Below, piece after piece: positions 6,492 through 22,860 of a stretch of DNA of 64,000 nt (position 1 is its first letter; the number at the start of each line of letters is the position of its first letter). The stretch comes from Amoeboaphelidium occidentale. Its lineage: Eukaryota. The translations under genes and the position numbers were made by a program. The stretch spans positions 62,001 through 126,000 of the forward strand of contig JALGPX010000005.1 in the NCBI GenBank assembly GCA_023515795.1. Direction: 5' to 3'. Under the pieces are notes generated by a model. That model did not search any database. It saw only the letters and a list, made by a program, of their open reading frames with translations, and was not told the DNA's origin.

Positions 6492-8019
6492 ATGGCAATT
6501 TTCCACAAAGATTTGTACACCAGCAAATATAAGTCCCTATTGTGTCTCTCCTTTGCTGTTGCTCTCAACGTTTGCTTATGCATGTATACCCTTCATGTAT
6601 TAAGTTCGTCGAAGAACGAGGGGACATGTATTCCGGCAGAAGGGAGCGACAGGGCAGACATCCACGTCAAACTAAAGGAGTCTTTCATTCTGTATAGCAA
6701 CATGAGCGAGAAACATAATCTTTGTGTCGAACGCTGTGAAGAAGCAATCCAGAATTTGGAGCGAACGATGGATAAACCAAAGCCAAAAATTACCATAGAA
6801 GCAGTTGGATATTTCGCAAGACCTATTCTTGAGCTCGACGATAGTTTTACCGACATTTGGAGTAAGAATCCTTTATCGGAAGATTATGAGCCTTACAGTA
6901 GCTGGACTTCAAATGCTATTCCGCATGTATTGGCGCTTATTGGGACAATTTGTCACGAGTATGTGGAAGTTCATATACGGCAGTTTCTACTTTACAATGA
7001 TATTATGCATGTGTTATCGACTCCAGAGTGTCAGGAGTAAGTTGAAGCTTGGTATGAAATTAACTTTGTTAAGAAAGTACCGTGCTGCTGGAGCAATGGT
7101 ACATAATGTTTACGACTACATGGAAAGCGCTGATCGATTTGACCGCCTTTATCCACGTGTTCTTCCTAATGGTGACGGTACCGGTTCCAGGCGTGCTTTT
7201 GAATTGTCTTGCTTTCAGAGGTGGTATATTATTAAGGATTTTATGCGGAAGAATAAGATTCCCCGCGTGTTTTCTGCTGATGCCGACACTCTGATATTTG
7301 TCAACGTCACGGAGCATATCCTTAAACACTTTGCTGACGATAAGATAATTCTAATGTGGAATTATCCGACTGTTAGTAACAGTTACATATCTTTTGATTA
7401 TGAAGGTATTACAGATATGCTGGCGTTCTTCGATTATTTCTTCACCCATTTGAGCTTATACTTGCCTAATGTAAAAGAGGGAAACTTCTTTTTGTATATG
7501 AATGATATGAACTTATCAAAGATTTACGGCATCAAGGCAATTTGTGGGTCAAATTGGGAGACCTGTCCACTTTTAGCTAACGACTCCGTGCCTAAGAATC
7601 ATGATGCATTTTACAATACTGCTTATGTGTTTCAACCACGACTGGCATTTTTGGTTGAGAAAGTGGCTGCTATCATTCCATCCAGTTGGACAGATTCTTC
7701 CAAAAGTCTCTTATCCTTTGATAACAACATCGCTTCTCCTCTTTCGATTTATGAAACAGTTGAAACTTTAAAGCGTGTTACATTCTATAATGGAGGTACA
7801 TACTTGACACTAAAGAGTGAAGCATGTCCAGCAATTTTGGAAGAATTTCCATGGACTGAAAGCGGAACTAATTGTTCTTTCCAGACTTTAGGCTTACACT
7901 TTTATAGCTACTACAAGAATTTGATGAGCAATTACACTTTAACCGAAAAATTTGTGGGTGATGATAGCTATTGTTCATGTTTAACCGATGGTTGTGACAA
8001 TTGCGCCGGCCTACAGTAA
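6492..8019 (+). CDS. Type II membrane GT-A glycosyltransferase-like protein (2 exons, intron 7037-7073)
   Basis: A GTAAGT...TAAC...AAG intron (37 nt) joins ORF 6492 to ORF 6805 in frame (CQE|KYRAAG). It has a TM anchor, a coiled stem and ELSCFQRWY...VFSADAD (DxD). Confidence 0.65.
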
Positions 8020-8282
8020 CTAAAGCTCAAAGCTTTTGAGACAATAATTTTAATCATAAAATAATTATTATTATTCACTTTACATGTTTAGTTTTAGTTC
8101 AATTAGTCAGTCTAACTAATGATAAAATGAACTTTAAGCGCCCAAATCACATAAAGTGACACCCCTATGGACACAAGACAATCCTGCTAGCAAATCTCTT
8201 TCTTCTCATGTGATATTCTAGCAAAACGATTTTTCAAGTATTCGAAGCTGATGAATTGAACCAATAGCCATTATCTGAATGT

Positions 8283-9116
8283 ATGCGCTGGCATTTTCGA
8301 AAGTTTTTGTTATCTCGTTCCGATATGTCAAAGATATTGAAGGAATTATGCTCTGATGAGAATGAACTAAAAAAGTTTCAAGAATTAGAGAGTTATTTTG
8401 CAGATTTAGATGTTTCAGATATCGATATCCTGTCTGATACTAAAGATCTAATTCAGGACGTTGAACCAGCACACAGACTGAGAATGAGGGTGTTTATAAA
8501 GAAATACCTGGAACCAAGACGGCAGGCAAAATTTGTTGGTTCTAGAAAAGTAGCAGAAGGGTTGCACGAAGAGGGAAGATTTTTGTATGTTCAAGGTGGT
8601 GCTTTAATCTCAAATGCATTTGCTACTGTTGATTCCGAGCGTTTGACTATTGCTCGCTTTCATGAAAGTCTGCTGGAAGATCCTGGTCAAATTAAATATA
8701 TCGACATGTCCATGAACGATCTATTGTCTTCAGATTTGCGTTTGGTTGCGGATATGATCACGGATCTTTCAGAGAAGAATATGATCGGAACGAATGGATT
8801 GATTTTGAATTTGTCTGATAATAGGATTCACGGATGTGGAATTTTAAACTCTGTCAATGATCAAGCCCTTCATACAATTATTAGCATCGTTAAATTTGTG
8901 GATTTACGCGCGAATCCTTTTGTTTCAGTTGATCGCAGAGATTTCTTTGAGAGCTTCACACCCGACTCTGCAGCATGCTCAAAGTTGATATGGGTACACG
9001 AATTTCATTTGAACACTCACGGATGGCGTCGCTTTGTTCCTGAAAATGTAATTGATAAAGTAATTGAAATCCATAGGGAATATTACGCCTGGATGAAAGA
9101 AAATGGGCAGACATGA
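8283..9116 (+). CDS. Hypothetical protein with LRR-like repeats
   Basis: LxxLxLxxN-like units IDMSMNDL, LNLSDNRI and VDLRANPF. The true start may be MSKILKEL. Confidence 0.5.
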   Translation: MRWHFRKFLLSRSDMSKILKELCSDENELKKFQELESYFADLDVSDIDILSDTKDLIQDVEPAHRLRMRVFIKKYLEPRRQAKFVGSRKVAEGLHEEGRFLYVQGGALISNAFATVDSERLTIARFHESLLEDPGQIKYIDMSMNDLLSSDLRLVADMITDLSEKNMIGTNGLILNLSDNRIHGCGILNSVNDQALHTIISIVKFVDLRANPFVSVDRRDFFESFTPDSAACSKLIWVHEFHLNTHGWRRFVPENVIDKVIEIHREYYAWMKENGQT

Positions 9117-9235
9117 TCTAATCACTAACTGAGTAAATTCTAAAAATCGTTTAAACCGGAATTTCACCATCTGAAACAGTCGTTTTAACTTTGATTCCAT
9201 CGCTGTCTTTTCTTAAATACCCAGCGCGAGATTAA

Positions 9236-9577
9236 ATGGCAGCCTCCAAAAACGCATCAATTCAAAGCCCAGAACAAACAGAAGCACATTTACCTGTTGG
9301 TGTCTGCGTTAAAGTTTCCAGCTTGAGACCAAAATATAGCGACCTGAAACAATGGTGCGCAGTGCCTGGACATTTACTTGCTACAAGACATGGTCTTGAT
9401 AAATCTCTGAAGTTGTTTGAAAAGTATCTGAGTGAAAAGCTCTCCGTCGATGCTGCTACAAGAGAAAGATTCATGAAACTGTCTGCCTGTAAAGAACTGG
9501 GATGTTTTTGTAATCCTGCAGAAAAGTGTCATCGCGACATAATAATCAGAAAGCTTTATGAACTAATACAAAGTTAA
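9236..9577 (+). CDS. DUF4326-like protein, internally shortened
   Basis: VKVSSLRPKYSDLKQW at the N-terminus and ELGCFCNPAEKCHRDII (CxC...CH.D) at the C-terminus. Confidence 0.65.
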   Translation: MAASKNASIQSPEQTEAHLPVGVCVKVSSLRPKYSDLKQWCAVPGHLLATRHGLDKSLKLFEKYLSEKLSVDAATRERFMKLSACKELGCFCNPAEKCHRDIIIRKLYELIQS

Positions 9578-9610
9578 TACTATTTCAATAAGCATTAATC
9601 ATTTGTTAAA

Positions 9611-9696
9611 ACGCGTAACTTGAGTGACTCATCATTTCAACGCGAAACACGTGAATTTGACGCGTGAATTTTCTCACCAACAGAATAGTATAAATA
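9611..9696 (+). promoter_or_regulatory. DMC1 upstream region with MCB-like ACGCG motifs, an AP-1-like site and a TATA box
   Basis: ACGCGT 9611-9616, TGACTCA 9625-9631, ACGCGAAA 9640-9647, CACGTG 9648-9653, ACGCGT 9660-9665, TATAAATA 9689-9696; ATG at 9743. Confidence 0.55.
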
Positions 9697-9742
9697 CCGC
9701 CCTCAAATGTACCCCATTTTTCATTCCACTCTGAAATTCTGA

Positions 9743-10877
9743 ATGCAGTCTCAACTGAAACAACAACAGGAAGATGTCAATGCTACACAAGATCAACAGA
9801 ATGACTCATCCTTAAACGACGAAGTAAACAAACCCCAAACAAACAAACACTAACATATAAGGAAACATACTTTCAGGATATTGATGAATTACAGAATGAA
9901 GGAATAGGAATGGCTGATATAACAAAATTGAAACAGGCAGGATTGTGCACTGTTAAAGGAGTCCAAATGACTGTTAAAAGAAATCTACTGAAAATCAAAG
10001 GAATGTCTGAACAGAAAGTTGACAAGATTCTGGAAGCGTGTAGAAAACTGAATAATTGTGGTTTCATCTCTGCAAAAGAATGTGAAGTCAGAAGACAGTC
10101 AATCTACAGAATATCAACAGGATCAAAAGAATTTGACAGATTATTGGGTGGAGGAGGAATACAGTCAATGTCAATAACTGAAGTATTTGGAGAATTCCGC
10201 TGTGGCAAGACGTAAGTTGTTGTTTCAGAAGTTCCCATAGCTAACATTTAAGCCAGTTGTCTCATACTCTTTGTGTTACGTGTCAGTTGCCCGTTAGTGA
10301 AGGTGGCGCATCAGGAAAGGCAGCATACATTGACACTGAAGGAACATTCAGACCAGAAAGATTGAAACAGATTGCAGAACGTTTTAATTTGGATCCTGAT
10401 GAAGTTTGTGATAATGTTATTTATGCTCGTGCTTTTAATTCAGAACATCAAATGGAATTAATAACTCAGATTGCTGCTAAATTTGCAGAAGAAAGGGGTG
10501 TCTATAGGATTCTAATTGTTGATTCCATAATTGCCTTGTTTCGTAGTGATTACTGTGGCAGAGGTGAATTGGCTGAGCGTCAACAGAAGCTGAATCAAAT
10601 GTTGTCTCGTTTAATGAAGATCAGTGAAGAATTCAATGTTGCTGTATTCATTACAAATCAAATGCAATCTGATCCTGGTGCTGGAATGTCATTTGTTCCT
10701 GATCCAAAGAAACCTGTTGGTGGATGTATTCTTGCTCATGCTTCAACAACAAGAATATCTCTAAGAAAAGGAAGAGGAGAAACAAGAATAGCAAAAGTAT
10801 ATGATTCTCCTGATGTGTGTGAGTCAGAAGCTGTGTATGCGATAACAGAAGGAGGGATACAAGATGGCAGTGATTAG
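9743..10877 (+). CDS. DMC1: Meiotic recombinase DMC1 (introns 9824-9861, 10212-10252)
   Basis: The spliced product reads [32 protein letters not shown] and [15 protein letters not shown]. These residues are DMC1-type rather than RAD51-type. Confidence 0.92.
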
Positions 10878-10928
10878 AAGCAGAAGATTCTCTTTTTTTT
10901 CCAAGCAATAAGAAACAACAACGGAGAA

Positions 10929-12881
10929 ATGATTTACAGAACTGAAAGCAGCAATAATTTACTAATTCAACATTATGAATCTACACTGACTCTAATTAAC
11001 ACTTCTACTCCATCATTAAAGAAGAAGAACCTAACTGCTACGACTGCATCCTCACTAATAAACTCAGATTCATCTATCCACCCCTTTCAACAGGGCGTGT
11101 TGGTTCAGAATAAGAACAGCATAGAAGAAATACTCTTTAGTAATGGAAGACACAGACTAATTGAACCATTGGAATTGAAGGCTGATGAGAATCGTTCTAT
11201 TCTGTTGAGTTTCTATGGAAAACAGCAACAACAGTTGTTCTTGAATGTTGTAATGTCTAATGGTGAACTGTTGAGAATTAATACTTTTACTAATAATAAT
11301 TGTGAAAAGATTATGGAAAGAAGGTCTTTTAAAAGCAGTAAAGGGAATCAGAGTACCAACAAGAAGGGATACTTTATAGAAGATTACAATGAAGATGGTG
11401 AAGAGGAAGAAGAAGATATTAGAAAAGTATACTTAAAGAAATCCTCTACTGATAAAGAAGAAGATTCTTACTTATACTTTTTACTGGATAATGACTTGAT
11501 TGTGAAGAAGAGTGCGGAATCTTATGTGACTATTGAAGAGTATAACATTCCTCCTCCTCCTGAAATTGAAGACAACTTCATAGTAAATGACTTTAGTGTT
11601 CATTCATATTCTGATTCTACTACTGCTACTTCTACAAATGATGATGATGATGAATTGAGTCTGGATATTATAATTATACAGAGTTCTTGTTCATCTTCTA
11701 CAACAGCAGCAACAACAAATCTGTCCTTGTATCTTCCTATTGATGATGGTGAATTATTACTCTTGACCAGAATCATTATACCCTTTATCGATGAAGGAAT
11801 ATCATATCAATTACACAATTCATTATTATTTCTTCTTTTACCAACAATTAATAATAATTCTTCAAGACTGATGGTTTATGATTTACATTTGGATTCAATT
11901 ACACAATTCTATACTTCTAATGAATCTCTTGCGTTTACTAAACCTGAGTTGGTTTCTTGTGTGGAATTCAATTGTCCTGTTGAATCATTTGTAGTTTATA
12001 ATGATTTACTAAAGGGATTAGTAATGTATTATGAGAATGCACTGAATAAGAAAGTAGAAGAGTATTCATTAGATTATCTTCTATTGTACAAAGTATTTAT
12101 ACCCACAAAAGATTCTTCTATTTCTAAGCAGCAGCAGCAGCAAGAAGAAGAAGAAGAAGAGATGGAAGAAAATCTACTAAGATTGTCCCCACTTCAACAA
12201 CACTTTTCTGCTTTTGTAAAGAAATTCCAAACATCTTCTGATGGTGTTGAGATTGAATTCAAGAGATTGTTGTTGCAATTAAAGATTAAACAGGAATCTT
12301 CTGCTGGTATTGAAGAAAGTTATCCACACTTTCTCTCAAAGCAAGAAGGAGTCTACAATGATCATTTAATGGAAACAAGAAAGATAATTAAACAAATAAT
12401 GAGTGAATATCTGACTGCATTACAAACAAGAAAGGAATTGATTCAGCAGCAATTGCAATTGAGTAGTGAATTATTATTAGGATTGCCTGATAGTTATGAT
12501 CCGGTTGGGGCTGAAGTGCTGCAAAAGAGACTGGAGAAATTACTTGCAAATTCTGAGAGACTTGACAAGAGATCGACGCTGTTGTTGTCCATTTGTATGG
12601 ATTTAATGTATCCGCTGTTGAGTGATTCAGAACAGAAGTTTAAGGCAGAGATTGTTTCTTTTAAGAAGAGAGTTGATAGAATTAGGAATGATTTGGTGAA
12701 ATACAGAAACATAATTGTAAAGTATGGATTCAGTACTAAAGAGCAAGTAGAACATCCTGAAGTAAATTCTGTTCATAATATTCCTGTAATGATGAGTGGA
12801 TTAGAAAAGAATCAACAGTTTCTAAAAAAGGTTTGTGATAAAGTCAAGGAGATTGAACAAAAGATGGAATTAATAGAATAA
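10929..12881 (+). CDS. Nup82/Nup88-like nucleoporin (divergent)
   Basis: Beta-rich N-terminal half and C-terminal coiled coils with the PLLSDSEQKFKAEI motif; many low-complexity E/D/Q/S runs. Confidence 0.5.
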   Translation: MIYRTESSNNLLIQHYESTLTLINTSTPSLKKKNLTATTASSLINSDSSIHPFQQGVLVQNKNSIEEILFSNGRHRLIEPLELKADENRSILLSFYGKQQQQLFLNVVMSNGELLRINTFTNNNCEKIMERRSFKSSKGNQSTNKKGYFIEDYNEDGEEEEEDIRKVYLKKSSTDKEEDSYLYFLLDNDLIVKKSAESYVTIEEYNIPPPPEIEDNFIVNDFSVHSYSDSTTATSTNDDDDELSLDIIIIQSSCSSSTTAATTNLSLYLPIDDGELLLLTRIIIPFIDEGISYQLHNSLLFLLLPTINNNSSRLMVYDLHLDSITQFYTSNESLAFTKPELVSCVEFNCPVESFVVYNDLLKGLVMYYENALNKKVEEYSLDYLLLYKVFIPTKDSSISKQQQQQEEEEEEMEENLLRLSPLQQHFSAFVKKFQTSSDGVEIEFKRLLLQLKIKQESSAGIEESYPHFLSKQEGVYNDHLMETRKIIKQIMSEYLTALQTRKELIQQQLQLSSELLLGLPDSYDPVGAEVLQKRLEKLLANSERLDKRSTLLLSICMDLMYPLLSDSEQKFKAEIVSFKKRVDRIRNDLVKYRNIIVKYGFSTKEQVEHPEVNSVHNIPVMMSGLEKNQQFLKKVCDKVKEIEQKMELIE

Positions 12882-13366
12882 TTCTGTAAAAAAAATTTAT
12901 TTGGCGCGGTGCGGTGATCCTTCGGGTGTTAATTTCAAGTCACCAGATTCTTCTTGGACTGTGTCTTTGCCCTTCTTTACCAGAAATGATAATTCTAATT
13001 ACAATTAAGTCTGTGTCAGAATCGTTCAAATCTACGATATGCTGCGACGCCTAAAACGAGCATTGCCATTGGTGCCAGTTCAGGGTCGATTTTAATGAAT
13101 TCTCTAATTTTTCTAAGCATTATTTTATGTCCGTTGTAAAATGATTTGAAACTTTGAAAGAGTTTTGCGTGGATTTATCGCGCCAGTGTTTCTGATTGGT
13201 CGGAATGTTTTGATACGCAACAGAATTAGAGTTTCATCTTCTTTGCTCGCTTCTTGTCACTGTTTTGCCATTACTCTGAGTAAATATGTTTTAGAATGTT
13301 TAAGATGAGACTTTAAATGGATGTTTCAGATGGAGAAATTCAATTTCCGTACAGTGATCACTAGAA

Positions 13367-14731
13367 ATGTTACTGCTACTACAATTGCTTCTCGTGTTCT
13401 TGGTACTGGTGCAATACACTCTAGCTCAACAACAGCAATGTTCATCTACAAGAATTAGGTATAATTGGTTTGATCTTCCTGCAGAGTACCAGCAGAGATA
13501 CATTAGAGCAATGAATACACTTCATAGAGAATCAGATAGATACAATGCAATCACCAGAAGGCATGTTCAGAATGTTAATCAGTGGCACGGTCTTTCGGTG
13601 TTTTTACCGGCACACAGGGCAATGTTGTTGGAATTGGAACAAGCATTGAGGACTATTGATCCTGGTTTGGTTATTCCGTATTGGGATTGGAGCATAGACG
13701 CATCAGCTCCACATCAGAGTCGTATTTGGGAAACATATGGTAGATCACAGCCATATCAGTGTGTCACTCAGGGGGCATTTGCAAATTGGCAAGTTCCGCA
13801 ACCGAATCCACATTGTGTTTCAAGAGGTATTGATTTTCAGAGTGGCACCGGAGCATGGTGGAGCTCAGAAGTTTTGGGTTTGCTGGTTAGAAACACGCCT
13901 GATTTCGGTCAATTCGCTTCAACATTGGAAAATTCTCCGCATAATCTTGTGCACTTGGCTATTGGGGGTGGTGGTAGCGGTGGTCAAGCGCCTGGCGATA
14001 TGGCTTACAGAGATATGTCACCTAATGATCCGTTATTCTATATGCATCACGGATTCGTTGATAAACTCTGGTTCGACTGGCAATCTTATCACAATCCACA
14101 GGGGGCTAACCGTTTCAGCGGTAATACGAATACTCAAATTCCTGGTTACTCTTACACAGTGGAAAATATTCTAAATACGAGAGACTTGTGTTACGTTTAC
14201 GCTCCTCCAGGTACTGCCTTTTCTGGTCCTGAAGTTCCTAATGGAGGCGTGCCAACAAGTTCTTCCATCCCAGCACCTATACCGACTTCAACTACTTTTA
14301 TAGCTCCCATGACAACTACAGCTGTTGTTTCTACGCCTGGAGTACAAACTCCAACTATCTCAGTTATCGTGATACCAACAGCATCAGTCACACTACCACC
14401 AGTACAAATATCAAGTACTGTGCCGCCTTCTCCGCCGGATATTTCAGTTACAATTCCTGTTTCTGTGCCAATTTCAACTATCAACATACCAAGCACGCCT
14501 CCTCCAGAAATTATACCAATTTCAACTGTTGCTCCGATAGTTCCAACAGAAACATTAGCCACGCTTCATCCTCCAGAACATCCTCCTACTGATCAGAAAT
14601 GCAATGACACAATTCCTTGTGTTGGAAAGTATTGTGGAAAGAAGGCAATACCTTATCTCGACCAATGCAAGGATCAAAAGATCATTTGCGTGAACCAATA
14701 CCTGGTAGAATTGTTGAATGCACTTAAATAG
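13367..14731 (+). CDS. Secreted tyrosinase (type-3 copper protein) with Pro/Thr-rich linker and Cys-rich tail
   Basis: Signal peptide; CuA RRH...WHG...FLPAHR; PYWDW; CuB PHNLVH...SPNDPLFYMHH. Confidence 0.92.
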   Translation: MLLLLQLLLVFLVLVQYTLAQQQQCSSTRIRYNWFDLPAEYQQRYIRAMNTLHRESDRYNAITRRHVQNVNQWHGLSVFLPAHRAMLLELEQALRTIDPGLVIPYWDWSIDASAPHQSRIWETYGRSQPYQCVTQGAFANWQVPQPNPHCVSRGIDFQSGTGAWWSSEVLGLLVRNTPDFGQFASTLENSPHNLVHLAIGGGGSGGQAPGDMAYRDMSPNDPLFYMHHGFVDKLWFDWQSYHNPQGANRFSGNTNTQIPGYSYTVENILNTRDLCYVYAPPGTAFSGPEVPNGGVPTSSSIPAPIPTSTTFIAPMTTTAVVSTPGVQTPTISVIVIPTASVTLPPVQISSTVPPSPPDISVTIPVSVPISTINIPSTPPPEIIPISTVAPIVPTETLATLHPPEHPPTDQKCNDTIPCVGKYCGKKAIPYLDQCKDQKIICVNQYLVELLNALK

Positions 14732-14739
14732 ATTTAGAT

Positions 14740-15282
14740 TTATTTCTTACCTTTGTAAGATGATATTATTGCATGAACATCCCTATTTGTAACATTTTTG
14801 GAGTATTTGTAATGGCGCATACATTTGTGCTTCTGCTTATTCAAGATCTCTAAATCGATGATAACTTGTTCCATATGCTTTCGTATGCTTTCCTTTAGAG
14901 TATCAAAGTAATTCTCTTTGAAGCGTTTGGTGCCGTACACTTCACGAGCGATCTTTCGTAGTGTTTGCCTTCTGAAAAACATGCCACCTTTGGCAAGGCC
15001 GTACTTCTTCCGCGTAGATGGCGTTTGTTCGTGTTCCATAGTATCAGCGTTGTCGTTTATTTCTATTCTATGCCTTAATGCAAGGGCTTTCGATTCTCTA
15101 AGAGCCTCTTTGTCTTGTAGTAACATATTTTGAGAGAACAAAGTCTTTGTGCCCCGAAGAGAGGAAACTCCATAGCAAGATGTGAATTCCCGCTTCTCAA
15201 GGGCATCATGAAACGCGCAAATTTCCTCTATAGCCCATTGGACGCCGCGATGGTTCATAATATCAAGGATCAAAACGATCAA
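14740..15282 (-). CDS. Basic protein with C-terminal H4/H3-like histone fold (divergent)
   Basis: FRRQTLRKIAREVYGTKRF...TLKESIRKHMEQVIIDL...NVTNRDVHAII parallels H4 AIRRLARRGGVKRI...VFLENVIRDA...TVTAMDVVYAL. Confidence 0.5.
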   Translation of the reverse strand: MIVLILDIMNHRGVQWAIEEICAFHDALEKREFTSCYGVSSLRGTKTLFSQNMLLQDKEALRESKALALRHRIEINDNADTMEHEQTPSTRKKYGLAKGGMFFRRQTLRKIAREVYGTKRFKENYFDTLKESIRKHMEQVIIDLEILNKQKHKCMRHYKYSKNVTNRDVHAIISSYKGKK

Positions 15283-15361
15283 AACTCGTGTTTCATGTCA
15301 CGATTGATGGCTGTTTCAGTTTCAGGACGGAATTCTACGCTGAATTTCTTTTTATCATAGA

Positions 15362-16429
15362 ATGAAAGACTTAATATACGCGCTTGCGGCTTTAGCCCTG
15401 CTCTCTTTAAGGTGCATTGCTACAGATAGATGTTGCACGGTTGATACAAGAAAAGACTGGGCTAATGTGACTCCGGAAGATCACGACGCTTTTATTTCTG
15501 GTCTTAGCTATCTGAAATCACAGGGATTTTATGATGCTTTTATTGGGAGGTATGTGAATGAGTGCGGCACTTGGAACTCTGCAAACGACTATCTACAAGG
15601 AAGCAGACGATATCTTCAGATACTACAAGAAGCATTAAGAGCGATTGATCCAAAAATTGTGCTTTCATACATCAATTTTACTTCTATTGCGAATGCTCAT
15701 GATGGTGCAGCTTCTTCTAAATTTGGCAAATGTGATCAAAACGATTGTGTTGTCTCAGACAAATTTCGCGACTGGCTTCCTTCTGATGGTTGCTTAAAGC
15801 GTAATGTTGCATTCTTGAAGGACTTTCCATACAAAAACTCAATATCTGATGCAACAGATTTTGATCAGTTTGGCTCTTTAATGCGCAAAGCCATTTCGGG
15901 CTTCCTTGGTGGAAATTTTGATAATGCTCGAATGGATCCGATGTTTGTTCCATCACTAGTCTACCAGGACTTCCTATGGGAGGCGTGGATGAGAAAAAAC
16001 AAGAAAGGGCATCATTGCGTCAACTTATGTTATGACTATGACAACTCTGGAAGCTCGTTTATAGATTTTGGGCCAGGAACTGTTACTTCAGGAACCTCTG
16101 GAAGATCATCAGATGTAGAAATATCTGATGGTGGTAATGAGGCTATAAACAAAACTTCTGGGGGCTCAATTACATCACCAATAGGCGTAGACGGAAAGGC
16201 AATTTCACCTACAGGAACCTCATCAGGTATAAATGGACGAGATCTAAATTCTGACAAGAATGGCGGCAATTCTAATAATACAGCAAGGCATCCTGCTAGC
16301 AACACAACGTCAACAATAAGCATTAGTCCAACAGCTTCACCTAGCTTAGTTGTATCGAGCGCATACAGTGTTACTGCGTCAACATTAACTCTGATACCAA
16401 TCTGTTTGATCTTGCTTGTTTCAACGTGA
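15362..16429 (+). CDS. Tyrosinase-fold pseudo-enzyme, secreted and probably GPI-anchored
   Basis: The scaffold is retained (RKDW, QEALRAIDP, CV..C.R, DPMF, LCYDY), but no His remains at the CuA/CuB positions. S/T/G-rich stalk and hydrophobic C-terminus. Confidence 0.75.
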   Translation: MKDLIYALAALALLSLRCIATDRCCTVDTRKDWANVTPEDHDAFISGLSYLKSQGFYDAFIGRYVNECGTWNSANDYLQGSRRYLQILQEALRAIDPKIVLSYINFTSIANAHDGAASSKFGKCDQNDCVVSDKFRDWLPSDGCLKRNVAFLKDFPYKNSISDATDFDQFGSLMRKAISGFLGGNFDNARMDPMFVPSLVYQDFLWEAWMRKNKKGHHCVNLCYDYDNSGSSFIDFGPGTVTSGTSGRSSDVEISDGGNEAINKTSGGSITSPIGVDGKAISPTGTSSGINGRDLNSDKNGGNSNNTARHPASNTTSTISISPTASPSLVVSSAYSVTASTLTLIPICLILLVST

Positions 16430-16513
16430 AACACTCTTGAAACCCTTTAGAAGTCAGATAAATAGACCGATACACTCTACATTTTATTTCTATAATCTAC
16501 ACATCCTTTTACA

Positions 16514-16816
16514 ATGAAGTGTCTTTCACGTGCTTACATGTTCATCGCTGCTGCAGTATTGATGCTCTCAGTCAATGCTTCGCCAATACCTCAAGAATCG
16601 TCCTTATTCGCAGGAACAGAAAAATGCGACTGTGTTGGGTGTGAATTGACTGCTGCAGAACGTGCCGCATGTGACGCACAAGCACATATGCATTTACTGA
16701 CATCTATGGCGAACTCACAGAGTGGCATTCAAGCATCACAATCTGGCCGCTCGATGCCTGTTTCAAATAACTCTGATCCTGCAGCAGGAGATTTTGTCAT
16801 CATGCCACCACAATAA
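16514..16816 (+). CDS. Small secreted protein (100 aa) with CxCxxC and HMH motifs
   Basis: Signal peptide ending VNA-SPIP; CDCVGC...C...HMH. Confidence 0.65.
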   Translation: MKCLSRAYMFIAAAVLMLSVNASPIPQESSLFAGTEKCDCVGCELTAAERAACDAQAHMHLLTSMANSQSGIQASQSGRSMPVSNNSDPAAGDFVIMPPQ

Positions 16817-17143
16817 ATACAATTGATAACTGTGCCAGTCCTAATATTCAGAGCTCAAGCTCAAGCTTCTACACACACTGCGAGCTGGAGTGCGAATGCG
16901 CGCAAGTTGAGGGTTAAAAGCCTTATAACCTGCTACTTAATAGATATTCCAGGTTCGTGGCGTAAGCGTTTCTATGGGAACACAAACTTTTGCTACTTAG
17001 CGCACAAGTCAAATTCTTCACACGAGATTGGCTCATGATTGTGAGTACAACATGTTTCACAACGATTATAATGCCAAGCTTGTTAAACGAGTTCCGTATT
17101 GTCTTCTTATTGTGATATAATTAATTTGTACTGAATACCATTA

Positions 17144-19383
17144 ATGATTTTGTCTAAAGTATCGAGTATTCTGGCGTTGGTTATTCTCGCAGCGTCGCAG
17201 GTTGCTGCACAAGCTTCTCTTCCAAACTGTCGCGGGAGGATTCGTATTAGATATGAATGGCGTGATCTTCCAAGAAATGAACAGCAAAGATATCTCAATG
17301 CGGTTGTGAGATTGCATAGAGAGAGAAATAATTTTGAGCGGTTCACACAACAGCACAGAAGATTCTTTTCACAGTGGCATGGTAGTGGCATGTTTCTTCC
17401 AGCTCACAGAGCTCTTTTGAACGAGTTTGAGGAAGCATTGCGTCAGGTCGATCCTGATGTTGTGGTTCCATATTGGGATGAAGGGTTGGACGCTAGCAAT
17501 GCACTCAATGCTGTAATTTGGCGAGACTTTGGCACTGTTACGAGAGGAACATGTGTTACCGATGGTGCTTTTGCTAATTGGCCATTGAGGATCCCTAACC
17601 CCCATTGTTTGACAAGAAACTCCACAAGTGTCGATGCTACGTTAGACTCAGCTGAACAAGTTAACCGTCTAATCGTAACAGCACCAAACTACGCTGCGTT
17701 CAGAGATGAAATGGAAAATGTCATTCACACGAGATTGCACATCCTGGTGGGAGGTCCTGAGGGAACGGGTGACATGGTTTACGATTTCTCTCCTAATGAT
17801 CCTATTTTCATGCAGCATCATGCATACGTTGATAAAGTATGGAATAATTATCAGCTGTTTGCTCCAAATCGCTTCACTGAGTACAATGGAAATGTGAATG
17901 CTAACATTCCTGGATATAATTACAGAGTTCGTGATGTTTTTGACACCAGAAATTTATGCTTTGTTTACGCAGAACCTGGAACAGCTTACAGAGGTAATTA
18001 TGTTGACGGTCCTAGTTCATCAACAACCATGATTGTAACTTCATCTACCAGAGTTGCAACATCTTCTACCAGAGCAGTTACTTCTTCAACAAGGATTGGA
18101 ACATCGTCTACCAGAGTTGCAACATCAACAACCGGAGTTGCAACATCGTCTATTCGAAGCTCTTCCTTGGGATCAAGCACTCGCGTTACGACATCTTCTT
18201 TGGCTCCAAGCTCCANGGTCCTAGTTCATCAACAACCATGATTGTAACTTCATCTACCAGAGTTGCAACATCTTCTACCAGAGCAGTTACTTCGTCAACA
18301 AGGATTGCAACATCAACAACCGGAGTTGCGACATCTTCAACCAGAGTTGCAACATCGTCTATTCGAAGCTCTTCCTTGGGATCAAGCACTCGCGTTACGA
18401 CATCTTCTTTGGCTCCAAGCTCCACAAGAACTTCAGGTGGCATCTCAACAACCTCGAGCTCAGCCGGAACGTCTACTCTTGCTCCAGGTTCATCAAGTGC
18501 AACTCGAACTTCTGTTGTCCCAACTGCAACTGTTCCGATCACCGGAAACTTGACTTCAACAACCAGAGCAGGTGGATCGACAATGGTTTATTCCGTTATT
18601 ACTAACTACGTTGCAAGCACAAGGACTTATTACACTTCTGTTAATTTCTCCACAAAAATTGGTCCTACTGTGTATTTCAATTACTCGGAATCCTGGGACG
18701 ACAGTATCAGCTACCATCCTCACGTCACAACAAGCTTTTACTACGTTCCAATCCAAACAAGCAGTGCTGAGTATGTAACACCTTCTCCATCGACAAGAGG
18801 TCCGTCATCTACTGCAGCACCAACAGGAACATCCGTCGTCAGTCCTTCTTCTACTGTGTTGCCAACAATTGTCACCTCAGGCACTGTCATCTATCCAACA
18901 CAGTCCTCTGCATTGCCGACAAACGCTCCAAATACGACTGTTGTCTATCCAACACAGTCTTCTCAACTATCAACCAACGCTCCTGCTACCACAGTTATCT
19001 ACCCGACTCAAACTTCCAACATGTCTTCCATCTATCCTAATGCAACTTCAAGCGTGCAAGGAACTAGCACTGGTCTCCCTATTCCAACTTACTTCCCAGA
19101 GGTTTATGATTTCCAGTTCAAGCCAGAAAAGATCTATAAGCCTGTTGTAGTTGGAAGCACCACCAAATATGTTGCGCCAACTGGAGCTCCAACGTTTGCT
19201 CCTGTTCCTGAAAGAAAAGTCGATGTTCATGAAGTCAATTTTGCAAACACAAGCCCAGAACAGCCATTGGTTCAAGTTCACCCAGGAAAAGAATACGAAA
19301 ACACATCTGTTAGTGCCGCAAGCTCGACTGTTGTGTTTTCATCTGCTGCAGTTATTTCCTTTATTATGGCGCTTTTCATGTGA
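17144..19383 (+). CDS. Secreted tyrosinase with long Ser/Thr-rich mucin-like stalk and GPI-like C-terminus (split by N at 18216)
   Basis: CuA QQH...WHG...FLPAHR; CuB IHTRLH...SPNDPIFMQHH. ORFs 17144 and 18238 are joined across a duplicated flank at the ambiguous base. Confidence 0.85.
18008..18425 (+). repeat. About 208-nt near-duplicate on each side of N18216, built of 21-nt (7-aa TSSTRVA) units
   Basis: ggtcctagttcatcaacaaccatg...ggctccaagctcca occurs at 18008-18215 and again at 18217-18425. Confidence 0.9.
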
Positions 19384-19486
19384 AAGCGCGTCAATAAAAT
19401 CTCGTTTGAAATTTCTTGTTTCAGAAATCGCGGTTTCACACAATCAAAACTCTCAATATTGTTTCATCTTTTCTAAACAGCAAGAG

Positions 19487-19750
19487 ATGTTGAAGTTATA
19501 CTCAGTTCTGGCTATTACTTGGTTGTTTTCCTTAAATGCATGCCAGCAATTGCCTCCGTTGCCTGATAGAATAAGCAATGAAACAATTGCCAGCAGAGGA
19601 ATGAACTTCGAACATATTCGTTCAGCAGAGAACTATTTGATAGGGCTTTACGATACTGCCTTAAGACTAAGAGCCTCTGGATCTCCAATTCCTGGTCCTG
19701 GTGAAATTGGCTCCGCTCAAGTCATGCAGCAACTCTTTGGATCGCGTTGA
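19487..19750 (+). CDS. Small secreted protein (87 aa) resembling the tyrosinase C-terminal post-catalytic segment
   Basis: Signal peptide MLKLYSVLAITWLFSLNAC; gapless 49-aa similarity to 20895-21041. Confidence 0.7.
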   Translation: MLKLYSVLAITWLFSLNACQQLPPLPDRISNETIASRGMNFEHIRSAENYLIGLYDTALRLRASGSPIPGPGEIGSAQVMQQLFGSR

Positions 19751-19952
19751 ACCAAGTAAAATAGATAAATCAATTAATCTTTCTATTTCCAAGAAGCACG
19801 ATGTTGCGTTTTAAGATTATTTATCGGAGTTTCGCAGGAATGCCTCTTACAAGCATCCAATGGAGATCACGATCCAAGTGATTGATGTAACATGAGTTGA
19901 ATCCTGCCGTTATTTCAAGTTCGTGCTTTATTATTTTTTATAATTGACAGCT

Positions 19953-21293
19953 ATGAAGATTTTAATCTACATTTTAGAAGTTTGTGTATTAGCTGCATCC
20001 ACGATGGCTTCTTATCGAATTCCAGACAAATGCAATGGAAATGTGGTGATCAACGTGGAATGGCATTCTATGACTGTCGCGCAAAAGATTGCTTATATGG
20101 AAGCTGTTTTGGAGTTAAACAGAAGAGGTTTCGACATTATGATGTCCGATCTTCATGCGAAACATGTACCAGACTGGCATCAAGGCTCATTGTTCTTCAT
20201 TGCACATCGCTACTTTACTCACTTGTACGAACAAGAGTTGCTCAAAATTAATCCTAACTTGGTTCTTCCATACATCGACTGGTCTTTGCTTGGTAACTCT
20301 GGAAACGCTAATGATCTATGGCAGTATTTTGGCGTTCCTGACAAGGACGAGGGCTGCGTGACAGGAAGGTACATAAACCCAGACAGTTACAAGGTTCCTA
20401 ACAGCGAGCTTGCTTTTAAAGGCCAGGCCTGTTTGCGCAGAAAATTGGAAAATCATCAGTATCAAACACCGGAGCTTTTGGGTGAATACATCAGAAAGTC
20501 AACCACTTTTCTTGAATTTGCAAGAAATAATGAACTGTGGCATACAAACATTCACGCGGCAATTGGCGGAGAAATGCTTTATGCTCACTCTCCTGCTGAC
20601 CCACTTTTCTATCCTTTGCATAAGTTTATGGATTTTCTATACTTTGCGTTTCAAAATACTGATCCTCAGAATCGAATGAATAGCTTTGGTGGTACACAGC
20701 CTTATGATAATGGCCGTGCAGTTGATGCTAACACAGAGATACCTGGATTCCCAGGAGTTCGAGTTCGAGACGTTTTCAACACGCTGGATTTATGCTACGT
20801 TTACGTAAATCCTAACACTCGATTCTCAGACTCTAAGATGGTGCTCCAGAACGGATATGTGCCACCTGCCCATTTCGGAAATCAGAACGTCACTATTCCA
20901 AGGCCTTCTCCAGTTACTCATGAAGCAGCAAGTAGATTCGGTTGGTCACAAGATGATGTTAATGAGGCTAACAACGCGTCTCAGCAAAACTATCAGGAAG
21001 TTCAAAGAAAGATTGAAAACAATATTCCCGTGCTTGGGCCTAACGTTGCTCCAGGGTCATCTATCAATGGTTTTGATCCATACCCACCATCACAATTTGC
21101 TATTTCACTTGATAAATCTGGTAGATTAGCAGAACAATTGATCAAGAATATTATACCAACGTATAATTCTTCAAACGGTTACTCTTATGGGGATGGTATT
21201 TCTACGGCACAAGGTAGTTCAGGTAATTCAATAGCTGCTTCCTTTGGAACTTTGTTTGTCGTGATCTTATTGGCAATTATTGGACTACGCTAG
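19953..21293 (+). CDS. Secreted tyrosinase with C-terminal helical extension and GPI-like tail
   Basis: CuA DLH...WHQGSLFFIAHR; CuB WHTNIH...SPADPLFYPLH; LCYVY; hydrophobic C-terminus. Confidence 0.9.
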   Translation: MKILIYILEVCVLAASTMASYRIPDKCNGNVVINVEWHSMTVAQKIAYMEAVLELNRRGFDIMMSDLHAKHVPDWHQGSLFFIAHRYFTHLYEQELLKINPNLVLPYIDWSLLGNSGNANDLWQYFGVPDKDEGCVTGRYINPDSYKVPNSELAFKGQACLRRKLENHQYQTPELLGEYIRKSTTFLEFARNNELWHTNIHAAIGGEMLYAHSPADPLFYPLHKFMDFLYFAFQNTDPQNRMNSFGGTQPYDNGRAVDANTEIPGFPGVRVRDVFNTLDLCYVYVNPNTRFSDSKMVLQNGYVPPAHFGNQNVTIPRPSPVTHEAASRFGWSQDDVNEANNASQQNYQEVQRKIENNIPVLGPNVAPGSSINGFDPYPPSQFAISLDKSGRLAEQLIKNIIPTYNSSNGYSYGDGISTAQGSSGNSIAASFGTLFVVILLAIIGLR

Positions 21294-21339
21294 ATATTGA
21301 GAGTCTAAATTTAGTCAACTATCGGAAGTTGTTTTGTTA

Positions 21340-21745
21340 ATGTCGCAAGTTCAGGAGGTAATTTCTCGCCAAGAACTCAAAATAAATAACTGAAGAAATG
21401 TTCTGTGTGCGATAAGGCGTGTTACGCTATGGAATCAGTGAAAGTGGAAACAATACTATATCACAAAGTGAGTTATTCCTCTTCATCTGACAAACGATGT
21501 AGACCTGCTTAAAATGCGCGCACTGCAATTGCATTGTTAGCTTGGGCAAATTCGCCGCGCTTGAAGGAAAATTCTATTGCAAACCTCATTTCAAACAGCT
21601 GTTCGCTTTGAATGGCAACTATCATACTGGATTTCTGCAAGTTCATAACGATTCGGTTGTTTCAGCTCCTCCATCTAATGCGCCTTCCCGTAAGAACACA
21701 GAACAGGTCCCACTTAGTAGTCTTGATGGACCAGATCAAATCTGA
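21340..21745 (+). CDS. Single-LIM domain protein (LIMD2/EPLIN-type; introns 21358-21395, 21468-21502)
   Basis: Spliced product [13 protein letters not shown]...[11 protein letters not shown]...[11 protein letters not shown]. Confidence 0.8.
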
Positions 21746-21837
21746 CAACATGTTCGATTAAAGCTAAACCGTGATCTCAGCTATTAATAGATGCGTGGTT
21801 TTTGATTCAACGAACGAATTGTCACTTCATTCGAGCA

Positions 21838-22860
<1,023 letters not shown>

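Follow-up and report, generated by a model that had tools for sequence, protein, structure and literature searches.

A stand-alone gene related by profile to the C-terminal module of early-diverging fungal tyrosinases: a candidate trans-acting cap

Described tyrosinase lids and the tyrosinase array

The caddie MelC1/ORF378 (PF06236) of Streptomyces is a small protein encoded beside a lid-less tyrosinase, MelC2. It was described, in the portion of PMC11608171 drawn on here, as a separately expressed lid that covers the active site in trans and aids secretion and copper loading. The shielding domains of type 2 PPOs (PF18132 in fungal long tyrosinases, PF12143 in plants, PF14830 in hemocyanins) are beta-barrels or sandwiches of ~160-180 aa at the C-terminus, behind a flexible and often cleavable linker. 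That of abPPO4 comprises 182 residues (384-565), with a CXXC motif and the placeholder Phe454 (PMC4157443, in part), and the placeholder of BtTYR is L466 (PMC10526336, in part). In excerpts of PMC11803259, the shielding domain is presented as a type 2 feature, types a-e as lacking a characterised protein, and a spacing of 7-9 between the first and second His as common to types a-f; no C-terminal module is mentioned for the type 1 groups d/e (zoopagomycete, chytrid) in these excerpts of the text, supplements aside. The short fungal PPOs AoCO4 and TtPPO (type f) are secreted and end at the core.

The window, that is, the whole 64,000-nt stretch of Amoeboaphelidium occidentale DNA analysed here, is compact eukaryotic DNA in the standard code, with introns in a LIM-type gene and with CCT chaperonin and kinase genes also present. 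It holds a cluster of fungal-type tyrosinase genes, all on the plus strand, in the order TYR1, a His-less tyrosinase-like ORF, a 100-aa ORF, TYR2, an 87-aa ORF and TYR3 (Table 1). TYR1-3 match PF00264, each with its six copper histidines complete, and their nearest named tyrosinase relatives come from the early-diverging fungi Syncephalis, Massospora, Entomophthora, Tieghemiomyces, Sanchytrium and Sorochytrium. They resemble groups d/e in their six histidines and signal peptides, with the nearest named relatives in Zoopagomycota, and their first two copper histidines (H66/H74, H71/H79 and H68/H76) are spaced by 8, as types a-f require. The short fungal PPOs share this spacing and align to the TYR3 model with Z ~25-26. 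The cores of TYR1 and TYR2 are canonical, each keeping 71/100 consensus positions, whereas that of TYR3 is divergent (51/100). The secreted-type ORF between TYR1 and the 100-aa ORF has lost the copper histidines and is possibly a pseudo-enzyme within the array.

Table 1. Coordinates of the features in and around the tyrosinase array
Feature	Position in window	Strand	Remarks
TYR1	13367..14731	+	454 aa: canonical core, Pro/Thr stalk, Cys-rich end; without module
Tyrosinase-like paralog without Cu-binding histidines	15362..16429	+	Resemblance by eye; no Pfam match; without module
100-aa ORF	16514..16816	+	Hydrophobic N-terminus, five Cys; no family, no module score
TYR2	17144..19383	+	Tyrosinase core, long Ser/Thr stalk, hydrophobic tail; without module
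Duplicated stretch, 209 nt	18009..18217	.	Contains the window's only N (18216)
347-nt contig of run X3, approximate span	19435..19781	+	Spans the 87-aa ORF only
87-aa ORF (P0001)	19487..19750	+	Hydrophobic N-terminus, helical module, short tail
Likely signal peptide, residues ~1-19	19487..19543	+	Hydropathy only (1.2-2.1 in first windows)
Module homology region, residues 21-71	19547..19699	+	Profile match
TYR3	19953..21293	+	446 aa: signal peptide, 6-Cu-His core, 28-aa linker, module, hydrophobic (GPI-like) tail
TYR3 module, residues 313-363	20889..21041	+	Extended Pro arm, helix 323-327, helix 333-355

TYR2 shows an apparent frameshift because the 209-nt stretch is duplicated in the assembly, so that the frameshift is very likely an artefact; the duplication itself is likely two haplotypes (a bubble) written in tandem. 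Run X1 has two half-depth 110-nt contigs at this stretch, and an RNA contig of run X13 joins sequence matching 17983-18008 directly to 18217. With the duplicate set aside, TYR2 is a single 676-aa ORF. Its stop codon is kept in runs X1 and X2 (TAA there, TGA in the window; position 19382), with AATAAA behind it.

Several observations elsewhere may be added. The CuB region 17767-17982 is also matched by other contigs of X1 and X2, which points to more tyrosinase paralogs elsewhere in the genome; these could also be partners of a small protein. A short element at 16849-16901, matched by several other X1/X2 contigs (summed depth ~504 versus 109), is a dispersed repeat, of which an 18-nt piece is single-copy within the window; Rfam gave no match over 12900-22000. 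At ~8000-14000 the GC content falls to 35-37%, and the ORF at 10929-12881 is rich in low-complexity runs, both unlike the rest of the window. The ORF at 31589-32497 matches Pfam Chlorophyllase (E 5e-17), which would be of interest should the organism feed on algae, and 60230-61726 matches a plant-type FAE1/KCS fatty-acid elongase (E 1e-124), an enzyme unusual for fungi.

The C-terminal module and its stand-alone relative

In homologs of TYR1 the catalytic domain is followed by a conserved segment, and the corresponding segment of TYR3 falls into register with it when full-length sequences are aligned without supervision. A profile search of 1.84 billion representatives yielded 150 proteins. 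The module scored at least 12 bits in 125 of 168 non-window homologs, a fraction biased upward since the search profile included segment columns, and three more were found on inspection. Carriers are found in the same genera that were named above as nearest relatives, while many relatives end at the core without it. This segment forms a helical module of ~45 residues at the C-terminus of PPOs from early-diverging fungi, with R25 present in 75/89 members and E28 in 72/89. It contains neither a CXXC motif nor a His/Met cluster for copper. In P0093 (positions 349, 775) and P0052 (508, 1025), which are tandem two-core tyrosinases, a module apparently follows each core.

The linkers in front of the module are 12 to 488 residues long, and [KR]R occurs in 81/120 of them versus 45 expected from shuffles. 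Kex2 cleavage at such dibasic sites is established in fungal secretion. The enrichment fits such cleavage, in which case the module of many members would already exist as a chain of its own, although the linker of TYR3 itself has no dibasic site.

The preliminary description had equated the segment with the C-terminal domains that shield the active site in fungal and plant tyrosinases; that assignment has to be given up, as neither PF18132 nor PF12143 was matched and the segment is a two-helix module of ~45 aa, from a class of PPOs to which no shielding domain is ascribed. More broadly, Pfam contained no family for the module at E<=1, whether in the ORF, in TYR3 or in 50 segments (PF18132, PF12143, PF14830 and PF06236 included). 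A PDB sequence search with the module profile gave four matches at E 0.2-0.9, none relevant, and no caddie at E<=10. In the open-access literature, neither this module nor a separately encoded lid in a eukaryote was found to be described.

The homology of the 87-aa ORF to this module was proposed from an ungapped alignment of ORF positions 19553-19699 with TYR3 positions 20895-21041 at 11/49 identities, and both the alignment and its coordinates were reproduced. Taken by itself, the pairwise match is marginal. Its Smith-Waterman score of 43 was reached by 47/5000 shuffles (12/1000 in a repeat), BLASTP of the ORF versus TYR3 did not report it, and the scores of the ORF against six other close modules were mostly non-significant. 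The match becomes convincing only with the family profile. An ungapped PSSM was built from 125 homologous tyrosinase tail segments, with no window protein included. Among 27,579 six-frame segments of the window, the ORF ranked first at 13.3 bits, in the same register as the pairwise alignment, and the TYR3 segment ranked second at 6.1 bits. The score of the ORF was reached by 0/20,000 shuffles and by 1/80,556 windows in real proteins, that one being P0152, itself a missed module. An earlier 12-segment profile agrees (z 5.2, 0/1500). Both copies lie far below the member median of 54.5 bits. A six-segment clade profile was chosen after the sequences had been seen and is partly circular.

A HMMER local search with the same 125-segment alignment placed the ORF first of 1071 at 4.8 bits, which is non-significant (E=1.6), and left the TYR3 segment undetected. 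An HMM from 13 segments missed both at E<=10 (3.0 bits for the ORF, -1.1 bits for TYR3); three clade-like members likewise scored just 1-6 bits when left out of it. The 87-aa ORF is shown by profile to be a homolog of the module, though weakly by HMMER. The module is absent from TYR1 and TYR2 as well as from the His-less and the 100-aa ORF. The absence of the module from TYR2 and also TYR1 bears out the earlier view, but the stretch LPIPTYFPE, which had been proposed as a remnant in TYR2, is unsupported; the best module score in TYR2 is -9.7 and lies elsewhere in the protein.

The ORF keeps the profile columns P6, I14, G18, I24, R25 and E28 (P6, R25 and E28 being its P26, R45 and E48). It lacks W13, M16 and N39, where T33, S36 and L59 are found instead, and it is therefore filed as a divergent homolog; the TYR3 module lacks these three and also R25 and E28. 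Since the ORF keeps the R25/E28 that TYR3 has lost, it is unlikely to be a decayed copy of the TYR3 segment. At columns 13, 16 and 17 the ORF has Thr, Ser and Arg, whereas the family mostly has W/F/Y, M and N/M; these family residues are the likeliest to form a plug.

A word-limited short-protein search with the segment profile gave one match among 179 candidates, the strain A ortholog P0173, so that one stand-alone relative and one ortholog group were found. A metagenome contig scan with the ORF gave 598 pattern matches, none confirmed. The ESM Atlas gave no lead: the highest score was 0.89 for the ORF, against unnamed clusters, and 0.78 for a typical module once tyrosinase clusters had been excluded.

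Constraint on the small gene and predicted position of the module

The 87-aa ORF is a real gene under constraint. Three of the four sequencing runs examined over 19440-19800 cover it; run X9 gave no aligned sequence. In strain A (X2, X3 and X5 record 3), the reading frame is open without indels over the aligned parts, and the ortholog P0173 has 87 aa with 93% identity (6/87 residues differ), a divergence similar to that of strain A TYR3 (94% identical). In strain B (X5 record 4), the alignment begins at 19550 and the frame is open without indels over the aligned codons ~22-87, with 25 differences, 19 of them listed; the signal-peptide region is replaced, 75 letters for 77, and the start codon lies outside the alignment. 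Third codon positions account for 16/24 of the listed differences (p=0.0009), and pN/pS is 0.19-0.25 over codons 34-73 (Fisher p=0.001). Leu59 (window position 19662) is Ser in the other covering runs. The view that a separate gene homologous to a tyrosinase C-terminal segment exists here is upheld by the conserved frame and the first rank in the PSSM.

From its hydrophobic N-terminus, the product is likely secreted. A Kex2-processed repeat protein or dikaritin precursor, as outlined in part of PMC7329392, was considered and rejected, because the ORF has neither tandem repeats nor dibasic sites. As to transcription, the 347-nt contig of run X3 ends in AA where the DNA runs read TC, the kind of that run not being on record, which gives a weak hint of a separate polyadenylated mRNA. 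The RNA-labelled runs X13 and X14 cover parts of TYR1 and TYR2 at a depth of just 2-9 and leave the 87-aa ORF uncovered.

In an AlphaFold2 model of TYR3 (91 sequences, pTM 0.78), residues 311-360 have pLDDT 87-96 and the linker 290-305 falls below 50 and is disordered; with 14 sequences the module has pLDDT 72-90. A confident extended arm beyond a floppy linker suggests packing on the core. All 10 lidded chains among the matches listed, namely latent abPPO4 twice, BtTYR twice and six mollusc hemocyanins, align out to TYR3-model residues 344-359. The latent abPPO4 alignments end at chain residues 480 and 490, within its shielding domain (273 and 276 residues, Z 22, rmsd 3.4-3.5), compared with 256 residues aligned for active PPO3, and those of BtTYR end at 486 and 496; the end points in the hemocyanins fall in what we take to be the beta-sandwich. 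The alignments of Bacillus tyrosinase and short fungal PPOs stop at model residues 284-289, those of AoCO4 and TtPPO at 285-286. Another structural comparison gave similar end points. The C-termini of several chains without a lid extend to model residues 364-369 as well, which makes end points imperfect evidence, and the overlap with lids was read from alignment ranges rather than from model coordinates or contacts. A position of the module on the active-site face is thus a prediction. If one counts back from where the alignments end, with gaps unknown, the placeholder residues would, on weak grounds, fall near model residues 323-328, in the short helix.

Mutual information between core and module reached a maximum z of 5.6, versus 6.2-7.2 in permuted controls, and targeted rim positions gave a top z of 4.1-4.7 among 287 tests (mean 0.6, sd 1.2) with kinship uncorrected, which is a hint only. 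The gatekeeper-equivalent position is Met in 95/123 members and acidic in 1, and is Asp in TYR1 (D216) and TYR2 (D214); column 17 is Arg in the free module (Arg37) and basic in 0/123 members. It may be speculated that Arg37 of the peptide and the Asp gatekeeper D216/D214 are co-adapted through a putative contact.

A possible trans-acting cap and competing explanations

A quick tree built from 57 cores places TYR1-3 in one clade together with P0005 and P0106 (SH-aLRT 96), TYR3 being on a long branch. P0005, P0106 and TYR3 share the order of core, linker (stalk), module and hydrophobic tail. Since both P0005 and P0106 carry the module, TYR1 and TYR2 likely lost it. The preliminary description had proposed a split pro-tyrosinase, but a simple split of TYR2 is unlikely: TYR2 keeps its tail, stop codon and AATAAA, and the small gene has its own signal peptide. 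Fission would not leave a tail and stop in front of the module, so that a tandem duplicate with its core deleted is the more economical origin.

A mechanism can be proposed from these data. In the family, the module is predicted to dock on the core and to act as a detachable lid, and a Kex2-type site often precedes it. The 87-aa gene is likely a tandem tyrosinase duplicate minus its core, the deletion of which would have brought signal peptide and module together. Its product would bind TYR1/TYR2 in the secretory pathway, keep them latent or stable, and be released outside, acting like the Streptomyces caddie though unrelated to it. Canonical cores without a module in TYR1 and TYR2, together with a free module more canonical than the attached one, make up the complement expected of a trans partner. 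A function in trans is plausible, and a cap with putative binding to the module-less TYR2 and/or TYR1 is the preferred reading, held tentatively and at somewhat less than even confidence. Against it stand the weak HMMER result, the missing plug candidates and N39, the imperfect end points, covariation below the controls, the single stand-alone relative found and a TYR3 linker devoid of dibasic sites. Furthermore, short fungal PPOs are active without a lid (PMC11803259, in part) and many relatives are module-less, so that TYR1 and TYR2 may not need one.

The 87-aa protein might instead be derived from the module but have a secreted role of its own, in the wall, as an adhesive, facing the host or as a tyrosinase substrate via Y50/Y55, with no regulation of tyrosinase. 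The distance from the member median, the lost plug candidates, the restriction to one lineage and the second small secreted-type ORF in the same cluster (the 100-aa ORF) fit this explanation. It is nevertheless rather unlikely, given that R25/E28 are kept although lost from the attached module of TYR3, that the gene stays beside module-less paralogs, and that it lacks the repeats or dibasic sites of Kex2-processed RiPP precursors (PMC7329392, in part). A binder of the core acting in trans as a folding, secretion or stability subunit rather than as an inhibitor, with the module as a clamp beside the active site, would fit the retention of the Pro arm and of R25/E28, the best-conserved charged pair, with the hydrophobic columns 13 and 16 not kept; folding and copper-loading roles are reported for other PPO C-terminal domains and for the caddie in parts of PMC11608171 and PMC4157443. 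The alignment ranges, however, overlap lid domains near the placeholder residues, and the module offers no CXXC or His/Met cluster for copper, which leaves such a subunit unlikely.

Chance resemblance, the ORF being a secreted peptide of other descent whose start is Pro-rich and whose helix is amphipathic, would be compatible with non-significant BLASTP and HMMER results and with the scores against the six other close modules. It is very improbable in view of the first rank among window segments, the shuffles, and the lack of any true false positive in the real-protein windows; the register was always identical, and the ORF lies inside a tyrosinase array. The least probable explanation takes the ORF for a fragment in decay or for an alternative last exon of TYR2; it draws on 112 open codons in frame ahead of the ATG, which overlap the end of TYR2, and on a pyrimidine tract with CAG before the ATG. 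Long ORFs in other frames likewise overlap TYR1 and TYR3, and the X3 contig runs colinearly through the presumed acceptor site; these findings, the signal-like N-terminus, the TYR2 stop kept in X1 and X2 with AATAAA behind it, and purifying selection on the ORF all argue against it.

The preferred cap would lie outside the caddie and type 2 lid families. The 87-aa protein is eukaryotic and helical, has its own signal-like peptide and no PF06236 match, and is homologous, by profile, to a module that a paralog in this cluster still carries attached to its core, all unlike the caddie; it may still work like one. Like type 2 shielding domains, the module is C-terminal behind a linker and its predicted position overlaps theirs, but it differs in size and fold and has no CXXC.

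The firmest new result is the conserved helical module together with a selected stand-alone gene for it. The full proposal is possible but rather doubtful: an undescribed 45-residue helical latency lid, independent of beta-barrel lids, is present here as a separate secreted gene that caps paralogs in trans, a eukaryotic caddie beside a fused paralog. In the present classification, shielding of the active site belongs to type 2 PPOs and to the Streptomyces caddie. If the proposal is true, a third, independent route to tyrosinase latency would exist in type d/e-like enzymes, a group that has expanded strongly in early-diverging fungi with a parasitic life. Because the gene stands alone, the latency idea is testable with a synthetic peptide of ~55 residues and a module-less neighbour. 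In conclusion, the 87-aa protein would, if so, be a genetically encoded eukaryotic tyrosinase inhibitor or escort, a pro-domain turned trans regulator.
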